Shown piece by piece: positions 664 through 51,656 of a DNA stretch of 64,000 nt (the stretch's first letter is position 1; the number at the start of each line of letters is the position of its first letter). The stretch spans positions 2,239 to 66,238 of the forward strand of contig JBCDBX010000001.1 in assembly GCA_039182865.1 (NCBI GenBank), written 5' to 3'. The notes under the pieces were generated by a model. That model made no database searches. It saw only the letters and a program-made list of their open reading frames with translations, and had not been told where the DNA came from. The position numbers were made by a program, and so were the translations under genes. This DNA comes from Pseudomonadota bacterium. GTDB taxonomy: Bacteria; Pseudomonadota; Gammaproteobacteria; UBA4575.

Positions 664-832
664 CAAAACTAACCTAATCTAGTGGGATGATTAGCATGCC
701 ACTGAATTCAATTTGAAATTTAATCCATCAAAATAAGGTCTATTTCTACAGCCAGTGCATTCACTTAGAATGCGCTGGCTTTTTGCATTATTTTCCCTAA
801 ATAGCCTTCAAATTTGTCAGAGGATTTCTGAA

Positions 833-1648
833 ATGAGTGATTGTAGTAATTCTAGCAATGTCGAAAATGATCGAGTTCGCAACAAAGTGCGTGAACGTTA
901 TGGAAAAGTCGCGGAAACTGGGCACTCAGATCTAGGAGGTTACTCTACCTCTAATTCATGTTGCGGCACACCTGATGTCGATGCCACATCAAAAGCCTTG
1001 GGTTACTCATTAGAAGAATTAGCCGCTGTGCCTGGTGGTGCAAACTTAGGCTTGGGCTGTGGCAATCCACAGGCAATCGCATCTATTAAGAATGGCGAGA
1101 CAGTACTTGATCTAGGTAGTGGTGCAGGTTTTGATGCTTTTCTAGCTGCCAAACAAGTTGGAGACGTGGGTCAAGTCATTGGTGTTGACATGACACCTTC
1201 CATGATCAGCAAGGCAAGGAACAATGCAAACGAAAGTAGTTTTACTAATGTTGATTTTCGTTTAGGAGAAATTGAAAACCTACCAGTCGCTAATGATGCA
1301 GTTGATGTGATTATTTCAAACTGCGTTATTAATTTATCGCCCAATAAACAACGAGTGTTTACGGAGGCATTTCGCGTTCTAAAACCTAAAGGACGATTAG
1401 CTATTTCTGATGTAGTGGCAACTGCCGAGCTTCCTGATGAAATGAAGAGTGATGTAGATTTATTAACGGGTTGCATGTCGGGAGCTTCGTTAATTACTGA
1501 TTTAGAATCAATGATTCAAAAGGCTGGATTCCAAGATATTAAAATTCAGCCAAAAAACGAGAGTAAAGAGTTTATAAAAGAATGGGCGTCCGAGCATAAT
1601 GTGACAGATTATGTTGTCTCCGCCACTATCGAAGCGACAAAAGCATAA
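833..1648 (+). CDS. arsM: Arsenite S-adenosylmethionine methyltransferase-like (ArsM/UbiE family)
   Basis: VRERYGKVAE N-motif; SAM-binding VLDLGSGAGFD; ArsM-type conserved cysteines (SCCG, ISNCVINLS, LTGCMSGA). The likely start is M27 of the ORF, with a GAGGA RBS upstream. The longer ORF from 755 is probably not translated. Confidence 0.6.
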   Translation: MSDCSNSSNVENDRVRNKVRERYGKVAETGHSDLGGYSTSNSCCGTPDVDATSKALGYSLEELAAVPGGANLGLGCGNPQAIASIKNGETVLDLGSGAGFDAFLAAKQVGDVGQVIGVDMTPSMISKARNNANESSFTNVDFRLGEIENLPVANDAVDVIISNCVINLSPNKQRVFTEAFRVLKPKGRLAISDVVATAELPDEMKSDVDLLTGCMSGASLITDLESMIQKAGFQDIKIQPKNESKEFIKEWASEHNVTDYVVSATIEATKA

Positions 1649-1690
1649 CAGTTATCAAACCAGTATATCTGGGAGTACTGGCTAACTTAT

Positions 1691-2383
1691 TTACTGAGCA
1701 GTAAAATACATATCACCATAATTTGCACTTGCACTTAGGCCAGTATTATCTGCATCAGTCATTACTGCTACACCATTAATTTCTTTTACATCAAAACCAA
1801 GATATTTTTTAATATCTTCATAGACATTAACTTTTTCCGTAAACCAAACTTGATGAGAATCTTCGCTTGATTTGATAGGGATCATGACTGCATTTTTTGT
1901 AAAAGCATTTGGCCAACTCTCATCAGGACTGTTATTACTTGACCAAATATAGTTTAACGCATAAGTATTCCAGGGAAATGCGCCACGCTTCATTACAACA
2001 TATACACGTGCCACATAATCATCACCTAATTTAGTCTCCTCATTCAGAGAGTTGTATTTTGAATTAGCCTTCCATGACCAATTCAGATAGGGATACTCTT
2101 GGATATTCACTTTCACTTTTTTATAAAAAGCCGAAGCTGATTGATTTGCCTCAGCTTGTAATGAGATTACGCCATCTTCATCTGAAAGTATGTACTGTGT
2201 ATTTCCTTCAAAGGATCTTGAATTCCAATCCATCAAATCATTTCCAGAAAAATTTCCAACAATAATTTTGTCATTATGTTTACTTGTACTACTAGCAGTT
2301 GGGGAAAAAATAAACAGAACCACAGCTACCAATAAGTAATAAATAAAGGCTTTCAAATATTTTTGCATTAATACTCCACTCAT
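1691..2383 (-). CDS. Secreted protein, DUF3047-like
   Basis: N-terminal signal peptide (LLVAVVLFIFSPTASS). A LNWSWKA segment resembles the DUF3047 LsWrWk motif. The family assignment is from memory only. Confidence 0.4.
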   Translation of the reverse strand: MSGVLMQKYLKAFIYYLLVAVVLFIFSPTASSTSKHNDKIIVGNFSGNDLMDWNSRSFEGNTQYILSDEDGVISLQAEANQSASAFYKKVKVNIQEYPYLNWSWKANSKYNSLNEETKLGDDYVARVYVVMKRGAFPWNTYALNYIWSSNNSPDESWPNAFTKNAVMIPIKSSEDSHQVWFTEKVNVYEDIKKYLGFDVKEINGVAVMTDADNTGLSASANYGDMYFTAQ

Positions 2384-2637
2384 TTAAGAATCACTCAGAA
2401 TAATTTTTGAACTACTAATGAGACCCGAAATATTAGAATTTGTTACAACTTATCTAATCACCATGGTTATAAAGGACTTAGTCAGTAGCAGAATTTAAGA
2501 CGAAAGATTAAATTTTTGTTACAAGTGACACTATTTTTGTCGATCCCGTCACAACTTCAAAAATATTTTGTGTCCAGGACAATATTTTCCATGCAGAATC
2601 TCAATCGATAAATTTTATTCAGAAAAAGGAAAGAGAA

Positions 2638-3396
2638 ATGCGAAAAACTATTTTTGCGCTGCTAGCATTGGCAGCATTATTAATAAGCACTGCCCAAGCG
2701 GCTACAACCCGGATTTATGATGTTACTTCTGCAGATGGTTCAGGCTCATCACATAGCCTTTGGTTTGCACCTCCAGGTGTACCAGGCTTAGGCCAAAACT
2801 TTCGATTTGATCCACCTTATTTACCTACAGGTGTTGGCACATTAGTTCTTGACGACATGGCAGAAACAGGCAAGCTAACCGGCAATGCTTTACATCCAAG
2901 CGAAGTAGGCACTGGTTGGATCATTGAATTCAACTATGACAAAAACTTCCCAGCCCCCTATGATCCGCCACAGTTTAAATCTGAAAATGGATCTGCTCCA
3001 GGCGCAGATATTGAATATTGGAACTTCTCAGGTGGCACATTGACTGGTGTCGGTTTGCTTGATGGCATCACTTTGGGTGTTTCATTATTGCCTGCGGATG
3101 GAAAATTTAACTTTCAAATTAGTTCAAGCATAGATGGTGTTAAACCAAGTGCTAACAATAAAAATACTAATTTTGGTGGCGCACATTGGGGTAAAGTCAC
3201 AAATGTAGAGATTAATCAGGACATTTGTTTTCAAAGCGCCTACTGCGAGGAAAATTTTGATGGTTTAAAAGAACTTCGCGGTCGACAAATTGATATCAAT
3301 GTGGATCTCACACCTGTCCCTGTTCCTGCTCCTCTTGCATTAATGCTTTCTGGCATTGCAGGTATGCTTGGATTTAGCCGTCGTAATAAGAGCTAA
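2638..3396 (+). CDS. Secreted protein with a C-terminal PEP-CTERM/VPLPA-CTERM-type sorting signal
   Basis: Signal peptide ending AQA-A. The C-terminus reads TPVPVPAP-LALMLSGIAGMLGF-SRRNKS, which is a Pro-rich motif, then a TM helix, then a basic tail. This is the architecture of exosortase-dependent sorting signals. Good RBS (AAAGGAAAGAG). Confidence 0.55.
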   Translation: MRKTIFALLALAALLISTAQAATTRIYDVTSADGSGSSHSLWFAPPGVPGLGQNFRFDPPYLPTGVGTLVLDDMAETGKLTGNALHPSEVGTGWIIEFNYDKNFPAPYDPPQFKSENGSAPGADIEYWNFSGGTLTGVGLLDGITLGVSLLPADGKFNFQISSSIDGVKPSANNKNTNFGGAHWGKVTNVEINQDICFQSAYCEENFDGLKELRGRQIDINVDLTPVPVPAPLALMLSGIAGMLGFSRRNKS

Positions 3397-3415
3397 ATCT
3401 ACAACTCATTTAAAC

Positions 3416-3455
3416 AAAAAAAAGCAGAGTATTTACTCTGCTTTTTTGTTTTTAG
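3416..3455. terminator. Bidirectional rho-independent terminator between convergent genes
   Basis: Perfect 8-bp stem GCAGAGTA/TACTCTGC (3424-3441), with an A-run on the left and a T6 run on the right. Confidence 0.7.
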
Positions 3456-3474
3456 CATGGCTTAATTTTTTTGC

Positions 3475-4134
3475 TTAATCTGAATTGATTTTCTGAGGTT
3501 TCCAACCGAGCTTCCAGTGGTTTTTCTTAACAATGACTGGTGGTCGACCATTATCGTAAAACCAGGAATCCACAACAAATTCTTCGTCTGATTCTTTTTC
3601 TTTAATTAGCACTGCAGTATGTGGATAACCAGCGGAGAAGCCTACTCGAGAAATGTAACCTTCTATAGTGTGCCATTTAAGCATATTTTCGCTCTCAAGT
3701 ATGCGCAAATAAGTATATGTATTTGATGATTCATCTATGCAGTCCATCTGATTGCTCTTAGATCTTTCTAACCCAAAGAGACTTGCATATGAACCCCCAA
3801 CATCAAACTGTGTATCCGTCATTCTACCCACTATAATTTCAAATTGGGCAACATATTCTGCAATTTGAATTCTTTCATGAGCAGCACTTAAATTGTTTAA
3901 CTCCCAATCAGAGGTCAACTTCTTCCATTCATTTCCAGTTAACGAGACTGATTGAATTTGCCGACAACCATGCTGATAACAAATCTTAAACTCCTCATAA
4001 CTGACTTCATTGGAAGATAAATCTAATGAGCTGTTTTGATAGCGCACAAAATTGGGCGACTTTGAAAAGACCAAAAAAGGAAAGCATAAAAGTAAAATAC
4101 TTAAAACTATGTATCGAATATTTAGTTTAAACAC
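3475..4134 (-). CDS. Periplasmic BTLCP-family (LapG-like, transglutaminase-like) cysteine protease
   Basis: Signal peptide. Cys-His-Asp triad in the characteristic BTLCP contexts and spacing: MDCIDES (versus GDCEDYA), PHTAVL (versus HAVL), VVDSW. The C-H gap is about 40 aa and the H-D gap is 16 aa. Confidence 0.55.
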   Translation of the reverse strand: MFKLNIRYIVLSILLLCFPFLVFSKSPNFVRYQNSSLDLSSNEVSYEEFKICYQHGCRQIQSVSLTGNEWKKLTSDWELNNLSAAHERIQIAEYVAQFEIIVGRMTDTQFDVGGSYASLFGLERSKSNQMDCIDESSNTYTYLRILESENMLKWHTIEGYISRVGFSAGYPHTAVLIKEKESDEEFVVDSWFYDNGRPPVIVKKNHWKLGWKPQKINSD

Positions 4135-4142
4135 TGAAATGA

Positions 4143-5135
4143 TTAATCAAGTAAATGAAGTTTTAAAAACTCTTTTGTATCAAGCAAGGCTTGGCTTGCC
4201 GCTTGCTTATTATATCCCGCCTTACCTTTGTATTGACTGCAGGCCTCTAGCACCTCAGCGACATTATCTTGGTAGATAGGCTTATTATTATAGATTTCAT
4301 AGAAATTATTTCGACTTTTTTCTTCAATCTTACAATTCGCAGGAACTTGAGCAGTGAGCGAAATTGGAAATGGGACTCTCGACAAAATAGGGTGATCAAA
4401 TGCATGTCGCGCTTTAGAATATTCTTTAATAGTAAATGTTGACTGATCTGCTTGACTAAAATCTTCAGTAATTAATTCTCTACAAGCCTTTAATGGTGTC
4501 ACAATATCTTTAGCTCCTGCCTGTATCAATACTGGTGCTCCTGTAGTCTTCATATTATTTATCGCCATTCCACACCATGGATAATAAGCAATATGTGCAT
4601 TAAATCTTAAATCAGTGTTCGTTGAAGCTGCTCTAACTTGATCAATGACTGAGTACATAGCAACAATCCCACCTTTAGAAAACCCCATAACTGCTACTTT
4701 GTTTTCATCAAACTCTGGATTAGTAGAAATATATTCGAGAGTTGCATAGGCATCTTTAATCATAGAGGCACTTGATACTAGCGTTTGATCACGTGATGTC
4801 TTACCTACATCACGTGGAGAAAAGCTATCAATTGCTAATGTAGCAATCCCCATATCTTTAAATTCGTTAGCGTATAGCCACTCTTGACTGCTTAAGCCCC
4901 ATGAACTATGCAATAGAACAATCGCAGGGTATGGAGGAGAGAAATACTGAGGATTAGGTAAGGTCAGCAATATATCGATCTCGCGTTCACTGACTGCATC
5001 ACCATAAAGCAATTGATCAATAAACTTGTAATCATGACTAACCACAGTAAAGATAGCATCGCTTTGCTCTTTAATTGGAGAACTACAAGCCACAATCAAC
5101 AATACGATGGATAATATCAGTATTCGAAAGCTCAT
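4143..5135 (-). CDS. Lipoprotein alpha/beta-hydrolase (dienelactone hydrolase / S9-like)
   Basis: Lipobox LLIVAC. Nucleophile elbow GFSKGG. His near the C-terminus (ARHAFDHP). The start codon is 2 nt after the epmA stop. Confidence 0.6.
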   Translation of the reverse strand: MSFRILILSIVLLIVACSSPIKEQSDAIFTVVSHDYKFIDQLLYGDAVSEREIDILLTLPNPQYFSPPYPAIVLLHSSWGLSSQEWLYANEFKDMGIATLAIDSFSPRDVGKTSRDQTLVSSASMIKDAYATLEYISTNPEFDENKVAVMGFSKGGIVAMYSVIDQVRAASTNTDLRFNAHIAYYPWCGMAINNMKTTGAPVLIQAGAKDIVTPLKACRELITEDFSQADQSTFTIKEYSKARHAFDHPILSRVPFPISLTAQVPANCKIEEKSRNNFYEIYNNKPIYQDNVAEVLEACSQYKGKAGYNKQAASQALLDTKEFLKLHLLD

Positions 5136-31452: not shown

Positions 31453-33159
31453 ATGAAACTGCTACTTCCATTGTTACTAGTATCACTCTTATCGTCTGCT
31501 GCATTTGCCGACAAGAATAAGCACTCTACTAAAGAATTATTAGAAGAGGCAGAGCAGACTATGCAAAGCCCAGAAGTTTCACCTGTGCGAAGAATCGAAC
31601 CTAAATTCAACAAGAATAAAAATAAACAGCACAATATTATTTATCGGAATATTGATGGTAGTTTCAACAATATTATCGATGATCAAATGAATGTCACAGA
31701 TACACAATTGATACGAGTCGCTGATGAAACTTACGGTGATGGTATCAGTGCTATGGGAGGAACTGATCGACCAAACCCAAGAGCAATCAGTAATGCGGCG
31801 TTATCTCAGACAGAATTATCATTCGCAAGTACAGGGGCAAGTGATTTTTTATGGCAATGGGGTCAATTTTTGGATCATGATATTGATTTGACCGAGGGCG
31901 TACACCCTGCCGAAGAAGTCCCTATCTCCATTCCTGCTGGTGATATACATTTCGACCCAAATAATATGGGCAATGTCGTCTTAGCATTCAACCGTTCAAT
32001 ATATGATACAAATACGGGAACAGATTCCAGTAATCCGCGTCAGCAAAAAAATGAAATTACGGGTTGGATTGATGCTTCGAATGTATATGGCTCGGATGAT
32101 GAACGCGCTCAAGCTTTGCGCAGATTGGATGGTTCAGGAAAGCTAAAAACTAGCGATGGTCGCCTTCTACCATTTAATACTGATGGCTTAATTAATGCAG
32201 GCGGTCCTAGTGCTGAATTTTTCTTGGCAGGCGACCCTCGTGCGAATGAACAAATAGGCTTAACCGTCATGCATACTCTGTTCGTGCGAGAACATAACCG
32301 TCTTGCAAGAATAATCGCTAAAAAGAATCCATTTTACAGCGGCGAAAGAATTTATCAGACAGCTCGTCGAATCGTAGCGGCTCAAATGCAAGTCATCACT
32401 TACAATGAATTTTTACCGATACTACTTGGCAAAAATGCAATTCCTAAATATGAAGGCTATGATCCTAATATAGACGCACGTATTGCAAACGAATTTTCAA
32501 CAGCGGCGTACCGACTCGGCCATAGTTTGCTATCACCACAAATTCTACGTATATATAAAAAACGTAAAAATTTCGACAATAGTGAAATCTCTTTACGCGA
32601 AGCTTTCTTTGCACCATTTCTTCTGACCAAAAAGAATAACATTGGCTCTATATTGCGCGGCTTAGCTTCTCAACAGTGTCAAGAACTTGATGTGTTCGTT
32701 ATTGATGACGTACGTAATTTCTTGTTTGGTCAGCCCGGAAGCGGAGGCTTTGATCTTGCTTCATTAAACATTCAACGTGGGCGAGATCATGGTCTTGGAA
32801 GCTACAATCAAACACGTATTGCACTTGGTTTACCTGCTGCTACTTCATTTGAAGATATTTCTTCTGACCCTGACATCCAAGCTAGACTTTCCAATGCTTA
32901 CGACAACGTAGACTTAATCGACCTCTGGGTGGGGGGATTAGCTGAAGATAAAGTTGATGGCGCCATGGTCGGACCCGTATTTTATGAGATTCTTAGAGAT
33001 CAATTCATACGCTTACGTGACGGAGATCGATTTTGGTACGAAAACGATATGAGTAAGAAAGAAATAAGGAACATTAAGAAAACAACTTTAGCAAAAATAA
33101 TTCGGCGCAATACAGGAGTTGGCAGAGAATTACAAAACAATGTTTTCTTGGTTAAGTAA
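31453..33159 (+). CDS. Secreted animal-type heme peroxidase (peroxidase-cyclooxygenase superfamily)
   Basis: Signal peptide. Distal His/Asp motif WGQFLDHDID. RANEQ heme-linking Glu motif. Proximal His in TLFVREHNRLA. Distal Arg in FSTAAYRLGHS. Confidence 0.8.
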   Translation: MKLLLPLLLVSLLSSAAFADKNKHSTKELLEEAEQTMQSPEVSPVRRIEPKFNKNKNKQHNIIYRNIDGSFNNIIDDQMNVTDTQLIRVADETYGDGISAMGGTDRPNPRAISNAALSQTELSFASTGASDFLWQWGQFLDHDIDLTEGVHPAEEVPISIPAGDIHFDPNNMGNVVLAFNRSIYDTNTGTDSSNPRQQKNEITGWIDASNVYGSDDERAQALRRLDGSGKLKTSDGRLLPFNTDGLINAGGPSAEFFLAGDPRANEQIGLTVMHTLFVREHNRLARIIAKKNPFYSGERIYQTARRIVAAQMQVITYNEFLPILLGKNAIPKYEGYDPNIDARIANEFSTAAYRLGHSLLSPQILRIYKKRKNFDNSEISLREAFFAPFLLTKKNNIGSILRGLASQQCQELDVFVIDDVRNFLFGQPGSGGFDLASLNIQRGRDHGLGSYNQTRIALGLPAATSFEDISSDPDIQARLSNAYDNVDLIDLWVGGLAEDKVDGAMVGPVFYEILRDQFIRLRDGDRFWYENDMSKKEIRNIKKTTLAKIIRRNTGVGRELQNNVFLVK

Positions 33160-47809: not shown

Positions 47810-48420
47810 TAAATAACTTCTGCGACCGGTTTAAAGCTTCTTCTATGATATTGGCATGCACCATATTGTTTTAAGGCAGCTAAATGTTGTGCTGTCGGAT
47901 ACCCTTTATGCTGAGCGAAACCATACTGCGGGAATGATTTGTCAAGATTAATCATTTCCGCATCGCGTGTAACTTTAGCAATTATAGAAGCGGCTCCAAT
48001 GGCGGGTACATGTTGGTCACCCTTGATTACCGCATAGGACTCAACGGATAACTCTGGACTAAACTTTCCATCCACTAATACCAATTCTATCTGTGTATCA
48101 AGCCCATCAAAAGCGCGTTGCATGGCAAGCAAACTCGCATTGAAGATATTATACCGATCTATTTCACATGCATTACACTGACCAATTGACCAAGACAGTG
48201 CATGTTCTTTGATCAGATTTGATAATTTTTCACGTTTTGCAGGTGATAATTTTTTTGAATCCTGAACTTCGTCCCAGCTCAAAGTATCGCCAAGCACGAC
48301 TGCCGCTGCAATAACTGAACCTGCCAGTGGCCCACGCCCTGCCTCATCAATACCCACATAAGTATTGATATCAACACTTATGCTTGAAAAATTAATAACC
48401 TTAGAGTGCTTCTTAATCAA
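47809..48420 (-). CDS. rnhB: Ribonuclease HII
   Basis: VGIDEAGRGPLAGSV catalytic motif. The true start is probably a non-ATG codon (TTG or GTG) near 48390-48420, not the long ATG-initiated ORF that runs to 48510. Confidence 0.85.
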   Translation of the reverse strand: MIKKHSKVINFSSISVDINTYVGIDEAGRGPLAGSVIAAAVVLGDTLSWDEVQDSKKLSPAKREKLSNLIKEHALSWSIGQCNACEIDRYNIFNASLLAMQRAFDGLDTQIELVLVDGKFSPELSVESYAVIKGDQHVPAIGAASIIAKVTRDAEMINLDKSFPQYGFAQHKGYPTAQHLAALKQYGACQYHRRSFKPVAEVI

Positions 48421-48510
48421 AATTCTTATCTGAATAATCTCAATCAAACTGCCAACAAATGCAATAGAATACGTATACTTAGAATTTTTATAACACATTA
48501 CGACAAGCAA

Positions 48511-49434
48511 ATGGGAATAATAAAAGCGGGAGTAGTTGGAGTCGGCTACTTAGGGAAATTTCATGCTGAAAAATACAACTCGCTCAAAAATTGTCACCTG
48601 TTGGGTGTCGTCGACACTAATGAATCCACAGCTATCAATGTAGCTAGAGATCTAACTAATGTTAGCGCATTTAAAAATTATCTAGATATTCTCGATCAAG
48701 TTGATGCGGTAAGTATTGTCACGACAACACCGGCACATTATGAAATTGCACGCGCTTTTCTATCTAAAGGAAAACATGTCTTACTCGAAAAGCCTATTAC
48801 ATCAACAACAGAACAGGCAGAAGAATTAATCTCTCTAGCCGATCAAAATAATTGCATTTTACAAATTGGACATATTGAACGTTTTAACCCTGCAGTACTG
48901 GCGATGGATGTATATCTACAGTCACCAAAATTTATCGAATCCCATCGCTTGTCGCCCTTTCGAGAGCGTGGAACAGACGTTGACGTTGTACTAGACCTCA
49001 TGATCCATGATATTGATATTATTCTTAGCATTGTGAATAGCGATATAGAAGACATACAAGCATCAGGCATGTGTGTATTGTCTGATGCAATTGATATCGC
49101 TAATGCGCGCATTACATTTAAAAATAATTGTGTTGCAAATGTAACAGCCAGTCGCGTAAGTAACAAAACCGAACGTAAACTACGTTTGTTTCAAGAAAAT
49201 GCTTACTTTTCAGCTGATTTAGCAAGTCATGATTTAAAAATTTATACTAGAGAAGAAAAAAAGATTGACTCACATAGCCTCACCTATGATAAATCTGATG
49301 CTTTACTCACGGAAATCAGTCAATTTTTAGATTGCATAGAGTCTAACTCTCAACCGTTAGTGACTGGCGCTGACGGGCTGCGTGCTTTGAGAACAGCCGA
49401 TATAATCAACCAAAAGATTCAACCTCAAAATTAA
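48511..49434 (+). CDS. gnnA: Gfo/Idh/MocA NAD-dependent oxidoreductase, GnnA-like (UDP-GlcNAc 3-dehydrogenase)
   Basis: N-terminal Rossmann motif MGIIKAGVVGVGYLGKFH. The start is placed at this Met, not the upstream ORF extension. Immediately followed by a DegT-family aminotransferase and lpxB. Confidence 0.7.
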   Translation: MGIIKAGVVGVGYLGKFHAEKYNSLKNCHLLGVVDTNESTAINVARDLTNVSAFKNYLDILDQVDAVSIVTTTPAHYEIARAFLSKGKHVLLEKPITSTTEQAEELISLADQNNCILQIGHIERFNPAVLAMDVYLQSPKFIESHRLSPFRERGTDVDVVLDLMIHDIDIILSIVNSDIEDIQASGMCVLSDAIDIANARITFKNNCVANVTASRVSNKTERKLRLFQENAYFSADLASHDLKIYTREEKKIDSHSLTYDKSDALLTEISQFLDCIESNSQPLVTGADGLRALRTADIINQKIQPQN

Positions 49435-50543
49435 TGTCTATGCCGATAACACCAATCCCTATGGTTGACTTGCGTACGCAATATCACACCTTAAAAGATG
49501 AAATCCAATCAGCCTTAAATGATACGCTAGAAAGTACTGCTTTCATTATGGGGCCTAATGTTCAAGCCTTTGAGAACGAAGCTGCAAAATATTTAAACTG
49601 CCAACATGCTTTAGGGTGTGCTTCAGGCACTGATGCATTGCATCTGGCTTTACGCGCACTTGAGATAACAAAGGATGATGAAGTAATTGTACCCTCATTT
49701 ACATTTGCTGCGACGGCAGAAGCAATTCGCTATGTCGGTGCAACACCCGTATTTGTAGACATTGAACTAGACTCACTCAATATCAATCCAGAAAAAATAG
49801 AACAAGCAATTAGTGATAAAACCAAAGCTATCATCGCAGTACATCTATTTGGATTGCCTGCCGATATTGGCGCTATTCAATCTATTATTGATGGCAAAGA
49901 TATTTATTTAATTGAAGATTGTGCGCAATCCTTTGGTGCAGAGTATAAAAAGAAAAAAACAGGAATACTAGGAGACATGGGATGCTTCAGTTTCTTTCCT
50001 AGCAAAAATTTAGGTTGTTATGGCGATGGTGGCATGGTCAGCACCGATAATGATGAACTTGCAGAAAAAGTTAAATTGTTTCGCAATCATGGCAGTCCTG
50101 TCAGATACGAGCATAGTATTATTGGTTTCAATAGTCGTCTTGATGAAATACAAGCAACAGTACTACGTATAAAATTAAAGTATATAGACAAATATAATCA
50201 AAATCGAAACCTAGCAGCAAAGAGATACACCCTGAAGCTTTCTGAATTAGGCATACAAACCCCTATTGAAAAATCTGAAAGCAGCCACGTTTTTCATCAA
50301 TACACTCTTTTAGATTTACGTCGCGACTCAATTTTTAAAGCGCTACAAAGAAATAATATAGCCTGCGCTATCTATTACCCCAAAGGCTTGCACGCTCAAG
50401 AAGCTTTCAAAGACAATTCTGTTATTAAAGACTTAGCCATCACAGAATATGCCACCTCTAACTGCTTATCACTTCCCATGTTTCCTGAACTATCAGAACA
50501 ACAGATAGATCGAGTTGTTGATATAATAAAAGAAGCTATCTAA
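49434..50543 (+). CDS. gnnB: DegT/DnrJ/EryC1-family PLP aminotransferase, GnnB-like
   Basis: 369 aa, DegT-family fold with the PLP lysine region (FSFFPSKNLG). Start overlaps the gnnA stop. Confidence 0.7.
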   Translation: MSMPITPIPMVDLRTQYHTLKDEIQSALNDTLESTAFIMGPNVQAFENEAAKYLNCQHALGCASGTDALHLALRALEITKDDEVIVPSFTFAATAEAIRYVGATPVFVDIELDSLNINPEKIEQAISDKTKAIIAVHLFGLPADIGAIQSIIDGKDIYLIEDCAQSFGAEYKKKKTGILGDMGCFSFFPSKNLGCYGDGGMVSTDNDELAEKVKLFRNHGSPVRYEHSIIGFNSRLDEIQATVLRIKLKYIDKYNQNRNLAAKRYTLKLSELGIQTPIEKSESSHVFHQYTLLDLRRDSIFKALQRNNIACAIYYPKGLHAQEAFKDNSVIKDLAITEYATSNCLSLPMFPELSEQQIDRVVDIIKEAI

Positions 50544-50549
50544 ACCTAA

Positions 50550-51656
50550 ATGGAAATCGTCATAAGCGCAGGTGAATCTTCAGGTGATATTCTTGGAGGA
50601 AAGCTTTGCGAAGAATTGCGACAGCTCGATAAAAATATCTCTCTCAGCGGTATTGGTGGACAAGCTATGCGCAAAGCCGGAGTTGATACATTGCATGATG
50701 TGAGTGAAACCGCAGTCATAGGCATCTATGAAGTTTTAAAACATTACCCTCGTCTACATAAAATATTATCCAATCTGAAAAGACACATCCAGCAAACACA
50801 ACCAAAGTTATTAATTTTAATAGACTATCCTGAATTTAACCTAAAACTCGCGGCTTATGCTAAATCTCTAAATATAAAAGTAATGTTTTATGTCAGCCCT
50901 CAAATTTGGGCCTGGCGTACAGGGAGGGTCAAAAAGATTAAACAGCGAGTTGACTTAATGGCAGTACTTTTCCCTTTTGAATTAGATTTTTACCGCAAAG
51001 AAAATATAAATAGTTGTTTAGTTAGACATCCATTATTACAGGAAGTTGAAAAATACATTCCTGTCAATTCGCTGCAAATGATGACTGTCGCCTTAGCACC
51101 GGGAAGCCGCAAAAGTGAAGTTAAAAAACTTTTTCCCATCATGTTAAAGGCTGCGGTTCTTCTGCATGATGAAAATCCCTCATTGAGGTTTATTGTACCC
51201 GTTGCACCTGGCTTCAATAAAAGCGACTTGATCAAACAATTAGACAACCTAAATATACCTATCACATTCGAAGAGAGTGATTTTTACAGCACTATTGATA
51301 AAAGCGATGTTGTAATGATTGCATCTGGCACCGCCTCTCTTCAAACCGCGCTAATGGGCAAAGCTATGGTAATAGTTTATAAGATTTCACCTATCACCTA
51401 TAGATTATTTGGTCATATGATAAAAGTTAAGCATATTAGTCTTGCGAATATTATTCTGAACAAGCGAGTCTTCACAGAACTACTGCAAAAAGAGGTGTCT
51501 CCAGAAAACCTTTACGAAGAAATAAAAATGCTACTCGATGACAATCAGAGACAGGACAAAATGAATGAGGTTCAAACACAGCTTTATAACATGCTTAATC
51601 AAGGATGCAACTCAAAGGAATTGGCAGAAAAAGCTATGCAACTAGCTGTTAACTAA
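50550..51656 (+). CDS. lpxB: Lipid-A-disaccharide synthase
   Basis: ISAGESSGDILGG ... SPQIWAWR ... PFE motifs match LpxB. Confidence 0.9.
   Translation: MEIVISAGESSGDILGGKLCEELRQLDKNISLSGIGGQAMRKAGVDTLHDVSETAVIGIYEVLKHYPRLHKILSNLKRHIQQTQPKLLILIDYPEFNLKLAAYAKSLNIKVMFYVSPQIWAWRTGRVKKIKQRVDLMAVLFPFELDFYRKENINSCLVRHPLLQEVEKYIPVNSLQMMTVALAPGSRKSEVKKLFPIMLKAAVLLHDENPSLRFIVPVAPGFNKSDLIKQLDNLNIPITFEESDFYSTIDKSDVVMIASGTASLQTALMGKAMVIVYKISPITYRLFGHMIKVKHISLANIILNKRVFTELLQKEVSPENLYEEIKMLLDDNQRQDKMNEVQTQLYNMLNQGCNSKELAEKAMQLAVN

Follow-up and report, generated by a model that had tools for sequence, protein, structure and literature searches.

The closest described counterparts of the tail considered here belong to two classes of C-terminal sorting signal: the PEP-CTERM class (TIGR02595/PF07589), which goes with the exosortases XrtA and XrtB, and the VPLPA-CTERM class (TIGR03370), which goes with XrtD and is best known from Rhodobacterales. 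XrtD is real and widespread: many Rhodobacterales plasmids encode it, in EPS loci where VPLPA-CTERM genes are present as well. As a rule PEP-CTERM genes lie scattered through the genome, each forming an operon of its own behind a long upstream region (Haft 2006, PMC1569441), and in Methylophaga a c-di-GMP riboswitch precedes VPLPA- and PEP-CTERM genes (PMC12530212). One PEP-CTERM protein, PepA, binds exopolysaccharide to cells in Aquincola (PMC9850573). Further tails – LPXTG with sortase, GlyGly-CTERM with rhombosortase and MYXO-CTERM with myxosortase – share the same logic, in which a motif, a transmembrane helix and a basic cluster are paired with a dedicated membrane enzyme.

The gene described here lies in a 64-kb stretch of DNA, the whole of which was analysed (the window), from a genome of 39% GC that is syntenic with gammaproteobacteria-like contigs. 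It is a genuine and complete open reading frame on the forward strand (2638..3396, stop codon included) that starts with ATG and encodes a secreted protein of 252 aa with a C-terminal sorting tail; the product is identical to NCBI MEM8843414.1, 'MAG: hypothetical protein AAGB35_00035 [Pseudomonadota bacterium]', which is encoded by a contig of 100 kb. A Sec-type signal peptide is predicted for residues 1-21 (2638..2700), with the cut after AQA in accordance with the AXA rule: the N-terminus, read from the sequence as MRKTIFALLALAALLISTAQA/ATT (the slash marking the cut), combines a hydrophobic core at residues 3-19 with the AQA site, and a signal-like N-terminus is found in every aligned member of the protein's family. 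Residues 22-224 (2701..3309) make up a globular domain, a closed beta-barrel of eight strands that belongs to an unnamed family and whose last strand bears the conserved motif GxQxDINVDL. The remainder (3310..3396) translates as TPVPVPAPLALMLSGIAGMLGFSRRNKS, followed by the stop codon. An earlier, sequence-only reading had seen in it a tripartite tail of Pro-rich motif, 14 hydrophobic residues and basic end, and this is what the translation contains: the tail runs TPVPVPAP-LALMLSGIAGMLGF-SRRNKS and ends immediately 5' of the stop codon, at the extreme C-terminus as in PEP-CTERM proteins. The signature motif VPVPAP (residues 227-232; 3316..3333) corresponds to VPEP in PEP-CTERM tails and to VPLPA in VPLPA-CTERM tails; the hydrophobic membrane-spanning segment LALMLSGIAGMLGF (residues 233-246; 3334..3375) lies within a helix that spans residues 232-249 in the structural model; and the basic cluster SRRNKS (residues 247-252; 3376..3393) contains an arginine, R248, that is invariant in the 7 closest homologs. 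All of these features are on the forward strand. Hydropathy scanning revealed one further hydrophobic segment (residues 137-152), which the model resolves into beta-strands and not a transmembrane helix; the protein thus has, as PEP-CTERM proteins do, a signal peptide and no internal transmembrane segment.

Measured against curated models the tail is a narrow miss. TIGR02595 aligns over all of its positions (1-24 of 24), beginning at V227, and gives 15.7 bits against a cutoff of 16 (E 0.02 for this single protein), while PF07589 gives 15.5 bits against a cutoff of 20.7; the annotation 'hypothetical protein' follows from scores just under the curated cutoffs. Eight family-specific PEP-CTERM models match the protein, in each case over the last 30-40 residues only. 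In place of the Pro-Glu-Pro signature the motif reads P-V-P, with Val where Glu would stand. The VPLPA-CTERM model TIGR03370 (cutoff 25.35 bits) returned no match to the window protein at E<=1; the arrangement of V-P-(hydrophobic)-P-A, transmembrane helix and Arg-rich end is nonetheless there (V227-P-V-P-A231, helix, SRRNKS). Among the homologs two exceed the TIGR03370 cutoff (P0005 with 33.2 bits and P0007 with 29.4) and three fall below it (P0003 with 22.7, P0006 with 14.8 and P0002 with 10.2).

Short signals score close to noise, and a match of 15.7 bits with an E-value of 0.02 in one protein could in principle arise by chance, from a Pro-rich linker and a hydrophobic C-terminus that together mimic a sorting signal. 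If this were so the tail should not be kept in register over hundreds of homologs, as it is. A tail-only HMM was also built from 112 family members (consensus VPLPAAGLLLLAGLGGLGAARRRRKAA), from which the window protein and its three closest relatives were excluded. When 287 ORF segments from all six frames of the window were scored with this model, the window tail stood out with 28.5 bits (E 1.9e-8), whereas nothing else exceeded 1.1 bits. Family conservation and the tail-only score together effectively refute chance resemblance, the probability of which we put close to nil. On sequence comparison, the tail is homologous to genuine VPLPA- and PEP-CTERM sorting tails. Neither inspection of the ORFs nor the tail-only HMM revealed a second tail-bearing ORF in the 64-kb window.

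The window protein belongs to a large unnamed family of sorting-tail proteins and is unexceptional within it. A word-indexed search found seven relatives. With a family profile, 1.84 billion representatives yielded 557 matches at E<=1e-3, of which 160 reached E<=1e-10, the majority of the 557 being proteins of 220-260 aa that align from signal peptide through tail. In an alignment of 122 sequences seeded with the window protein, C-termini consist of a conserved strand, GDINVDL, followed by one of several types of sorting tail: at E<1e-3, 87 members match VPLPA-CTERM (TIGR03370), 11 match PEP-CTERM (TIGR02595) and one matches VPDSG-CTERM, and nine of ten VPEP-type members checked singly pass the TIGR02595 cutoff. 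Only eleven columns reach at least 90% conservation, among them those of the two motif prolines (P228, P230) and of D219 and N221, with W184 being invariant. The window protein has the full set of family features – homology over its full length, W184 and the GDINVDL strand before the tail. Its best family match in the genome collection is 43% identical, and a tblastn search for the family on plasmids gave no match.

The same module, often repeated, occurs within proteins of 0.4-3 kaa, several of them from Flavobacteriales. In at least one giant protein (P0058) it is accompanied by pAdhesive_15, HYR and SprB domains as well as by a T9SS sorting domain, and in the Flavobacteriales giant proteins the T9SS tail takes the place of the exosortase-type tail. 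Since the module is found with differing tails, it is best seen as an extracellular passenger that acquires various sorting signals; and since VPLPA-, PEP- and VPDSG-CTERM tails all occur on it, different flavours of exosortase signal are carried by one module. That P0005 and P0007 pass the VPLPA-CTERM cutoff, and that 87 of 122 members match this model, counts in favour of the window protein being an exosortase substrate. Family members whose tail is of the standard VPLPA type (VPLPATAMLLMSGL...) are encoded on three metagenome contigs of 39-41% GC (L055, L056 and L060), and thus the class is not restricted to high-GC Rhodobacterales. On two Rhodobacterales-like contigs (L006, 211-876 reverse and 1989-2714 forward; L062, 235-945 reverse and 1901-2740 forward) the family gene is accompanied, at a distance of no more than ~1-2 kb, by another, different ORF with a VPxPA-type tail, from which it follows that tail-bearing genes can cluster in some genomes.

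An AlphaFold2 model computed from the 122-sequence alignment (pLDDT 93.4, pTM 0.85) shows a closed eight-stranded barrel with the C-terminal helix directly after it. Fold matches could be read as pointing to an outer-membrane barrel; we rejected this reading, and take the barrel to be soluble, since giant adhesin-like proteins that are soluble contain the module as well. The regions of the protein differ in their degree of conservation. Compared with P0004, the window protein has 85% identity in the tail, 38% in the domain and about 50% in the signal peptide; for the syntenic ortholog P0006 the corresponding values are 77%, 38% and about 50%. A segment required only to be hydrophobic would be expected to evolve like the signal peptide: the excess conservation of the tail, over both domain and signal peptide, thus suggests that it is recognised by its specific sequence and not for mere hydrophobicity.

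These values bear directly on the reading that the tail is a relic, that is, that the lineage lost or never had an exosortase and that the tail now serves as a plain inner-membrane anchor holding the barrel on the periplasmic face. Such a history would be consistent with a sole tail-bearing ORF in 64 kb, a score under the cutoff and a motif that has lost its Glu, and there is precedent in genomes that lack EpsH but encode one or two PEP-CTERM proteins, considered to be possible remnants (Haft 2006, PMC1569441). But a plain anchor needs hydrophobicity alone, whereas here the tail has changed far less than domain or signal peptide between diverged orthologs and the motif prolines are near-invariant throughout the family; moreover, Val or Leu in place of Glu defines the functional VPLPA-CTERM class and is not a mark of decay. 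We therefore regard a relic anchor as unlikely.

The organization of the locus is that of a single gene. The upstream intergenic region of 254 bp (2384..2637) is common to a divergent DUF3047 gene and ends in a ribosome-binding stretch, AAGGAAAGAGA(A) (2626-2637, forward strand), which is conserved in two contigs of a related lineage (L002 and L003), the remaining upstream sequence being poorly conserved. Downstream, a hairpin resembling a bidirectional intrinsic terminator (3418..3447; 13-bp stem, T runs on both strands) precedes a convergent ORF of 219 aa (3475..4134, reverse strand). Bounded in this way by a divergent gene and a terminator, the gene is monocistronic; together with the long upstream region this is the typical PEP-CTERM layout, and counts for an exosortase substrate. 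A sigma-54 -24/-12 site, as in XrtA-type promoters, is absent from 2384-2637 (counts across the window are at chance level), no match to a sigma-70-like consensus was found in the same interval, and no Rfam family, the c-di-GMP riboswitch included, was detected in the window or in the loci of five low-GC relatives.

Comparison with L002 and L003 (GC 44-46%; EF-P 93%, EpmA 61% and EpmB 63% identical) shows the gene in a syntenic position with other surroundings. In both contigs the ortholog P0006 occupies the same slot, directly between psd and epmA-efp-epmB, with no methyltransferase, DUF3047, 219-aa or DLH gene beside it. The interval between psd and epmA is thus a variable spot (755-5135 in the window; 9249-10785 in L002; 5558-7094 in L003), and in the window it has gained four genes: the methyltransferase, the DUF3047 gene, the 219-aa ORF and a DLH lipoprotein hydrolase. 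The sequence-only reading had placed the gene in a small cluster of secreted proteins, together with DUF3047, a BTLCP protease and a lipoprotein hydrolase. Two of these neighbors are what they were said to be – DUF3047 matches PF11249 with E 4.8e-50, and the lipoprotein hydrolase is confirmed as one of the DLH family – but the BTLCP label found no support in Pfam, NCBIfam or PDB sequences: the secreted 219-aa product of 3475..4134 gave no above-noise Pfam or NCBIfam match and no PDB-sequence match, and the ORF is missing in the syntenic relatives. The cluster itself does not survive the comparison. The DUF3047 gene is divergent, a bidirectional terminator separates the gene from its downstream neighbor, and the neighbors are absent from L002 and L003; synteny and transcription units together rule out a functional cluster, and because the neighbors are missing in L002 and L003 the group is better regarded as a lineage-specific accretion than as a system. 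Nor does DUF3047 accompany family members elsewhere: it occurs in none of 23 fetched loci that carry one.

Two other loci in the window deserve mention in their own right. An ORF of 568 aa (31453-33159, forward strand) matches PF03098 (animal haem peroxidase) over almost its whole length (E 3.4e-162), a family that is not common among bacteria. Directly upstream of lpxB (50550-51656) lie genes for a GFO/IDH/MocA oxidoreductase and a DegT-family aminotransferase (48406-50543, forward strand), a pair that resembles, and may correspond to, GnnA/GnnB, which make lipid A of the GlcN3N type.

If the protein is an exosortase substrate, then an exosortase is expected somewhere in the genome. The claim that none is encoded in the window holds: a tblastn search with two real exosortases was negative, and ORFs with at least four predicted transmembrane segments all belong to other families (HtpX/M48, LptF, LptG, LysE, CdsA, GtrA, RDD and RseP, the last labelled from gene position only). 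The 10 kb past the window end contain housekeeping genes and no exosortase. The juxtaposition of GtrA and a large protein recalls a pair in the xrtD locus of Thioclava; this candidate was discarded, the 646-aa neighbor of GtrA in the window being a DinG-type helicase. Flanks of family genes are similar: none of the 23 fetched loci (about 14 distinct contexts) includes an exosortase, and multi-TM neighbors there are transporters. Because PEP-CTERM genes are dispersed (PMC1569441), and because none of these family loci has the enzyme nearby, its local absence is uninformative. For the same reasons a lone tail gene with no enzyme at hand, which the sequence-only reading thought unusual, is the typical state of affairs.

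Reference exosortases were taken from plasmids (pDV xrt, several xrtD, xrtA and xrtB). The Cys, Arg and His to be expected in the catalytic core are invariant across seven aligned exosortases. Searched against a set of 5.8 billion proteins, the exosortase profile gave 7586 matches, the best 120 of which are all XrtD of the Rhodobacterales type; among the exosortase matches listed, P0222, an NCBI+Logan match, comes from a different sample than the window. On Roseobacter and Jannaschia plasmids xrtD has neighboring genes for VPLPA-CTERM proteins, and with these proteins the family profile aligns in the tail only, with 96-97% probability.

A further reading has VPVPAP processed by another membrane enzyme, for example a rhomboid-family or other intramembrane protease, by analogy with rhombosortase and myxosortase. 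Rhomboid-family protease genes are indeed present within the xrtD/EPS loci of two Rhodobacterales plasmids (Roseobacter denitrificans pTB2, L052 1-542; Thioclava p3, L065 3228-3812), and the tail variant VPVPAPLALMLSG is also seen in P0087, a more distant member of the family encoded by another organism, and may therefore represent a distinct subclass. However, no scan produced a GlyGly-CTERM match, models for MYXO-CTERM, LPXTG and similar signals gave only weak, sub-cutoff matches in two homologs, the best tail matches are all to models of the PEP-CTERM class, and no gene for a rhomboid or other candidate enzyme lies within the window. Processing by such an enzyme seems to us very improbable.

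P0087 (L070 564-1304) shares the start of the tail (VPVPAPLALMLSGIA). Its contig has a GC content of 56.5% and must therefore come from a different organism than the window; it derives from SRR22824308, a sister sample of SRR22824305, the Logan source of the window. The VPVPAPLALMLSG...RR tail is thus conserved at 77-85% in low-GC gammaproteobacteria-like lineages and present also in an unrelated 56% GC organism. From this it might be argued that the tail constitutes a distinct subclass of sorting signal, used by an undescribed subtype of exosortase or by none, and that the protein is its sole substrate or one of very few, encoded at a conserved housekeeping locus, psd–X–epmA-efp-epmB; we consider this combination quite unlikely.

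We think it probable that an exosortase processes the protein, as an unremarkable substrate of the VPLPA/PEP-CTERM class with a VPVPAP motif slightly off consensus, and that this enzyme is encoded elsewhere in the genome. Of the two explanations that the sequence-only reading had offered, an exosortase elsewhere fits much better than a different route of C-terminal processing. Against an exosortase substrate count the lack of an exosortase gene in the window and the 10 kb beyond its end, scores under every curated cutoff with no VPLPA-CTERM match at E<=1, Val in the position of PEP's Glu, the lack of a second tail-bearing ORF in 64 kb, and an upstream region free of the sigma-54 site or c-di-GMP riboswitch that precede some PEP-CTERM genes. 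From established knowledge of PEP-CTERM proteins and exosortases we infer the cleavage, the presence and identity of the enzyme, and the final location and role of the protein as follows. The signal peptide would direct Sec export of the precursor, which the C-terminal helix and basic cluster would anchor in the inner membrane so that the VPVP motif faces the periplasm. The motif would then be recognised by a polytopic exosortase encoded elsewhere, most likely an XrtD-like enzyme, which would cut off the anchor and hand on the beta-barrel domain for placement at the cell surface or in the exopolysaccharide matrix. There the domain would probably serve structure or adhesion within the matrix, as does the distantly related PepA.

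The significance for biology at large is small. A 'hypothetical protein' becomes a probable exosortase substrate, missed by curated models by a fraction of a bit, and its passenger domain falls into an unnamed beta-barrel family of some size, with 557 representative clusters, whose module is found also in giant adhesin-like proteins. This passenger family and the narrowly missed tail variant are new, if only modestly so. Annotation would be improved by a family-level model and by a slightly broader VPLPA/PEP-CTERM model. Should the organism be shown to be without any exosortase, the conserved tail would be a useful test case for use of the signal independent of exosortases.

How, then, does the locus compare with known systems? 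LPXTG, GlyGly-CTERM and MYXO-CTERM are furthest from it: they rely on other motifs and enzymes, and none of their models scores the window protein. PepA (NF033554; flocculation-associated; Aquincola and Zoogloea; PMC9850573) is, like the window protein, a small secreted protein with a sorting tail; unlike the window gene, pepA is RpoN-dependent and adjoins prsT. NF033554 matches 65 of 122 family members, several across most of the domain (residues 13-273 of P0150 align to model positions 5-260). Against the equivalog cutoff of 80 bits the members reach at most 47.8 and the window protein 27.2, the latter over residues 213-251 only; it is not a PepA equivalog, and any kinship with PepA, traced through other members of the family, would be distant at best. 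The extended matches suggest a distant relationship and a similar matrix-binding role: they are a lead, and not membership.

VPLPA-CTERM/XrtD offers a like tripartite tail with a hydrophobic residue for PEP's Glu, V-P-L-P-A where the window protein has V-P-V-P-A. The host, of 39% GC and with gammaproteobacteria-like synteny, is not one of the Rhodobacterales, and whereas in plasmid xrtD loci – a sample biased by the use of xrt genes in the search – there are VPLPA-CTERM genes no more than a few kb away, the window has no xrtD or EPS locus. PEP-CTERM (PMC1569441) is alike in tail architecture, extreme C-terminal position, signal peptide, single-gene operon and a passenger without Pfam domains. 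It differs in that the window motif has Val for Glu and lies 0.3 bits under the TIGR02595 cutoff, and in that the window lacks a sigma-54 promoter upstream of the gene, PrsK/PrsR/PrsT and XrtA-associated EPS genes. In the tail itself the likeness is close: VPVPAPLALMLSGIAGM of the window protein aligns, position by position, with VPEPATLALLGLGLAGL, the typical PEP-CTERM form in the model consensus.
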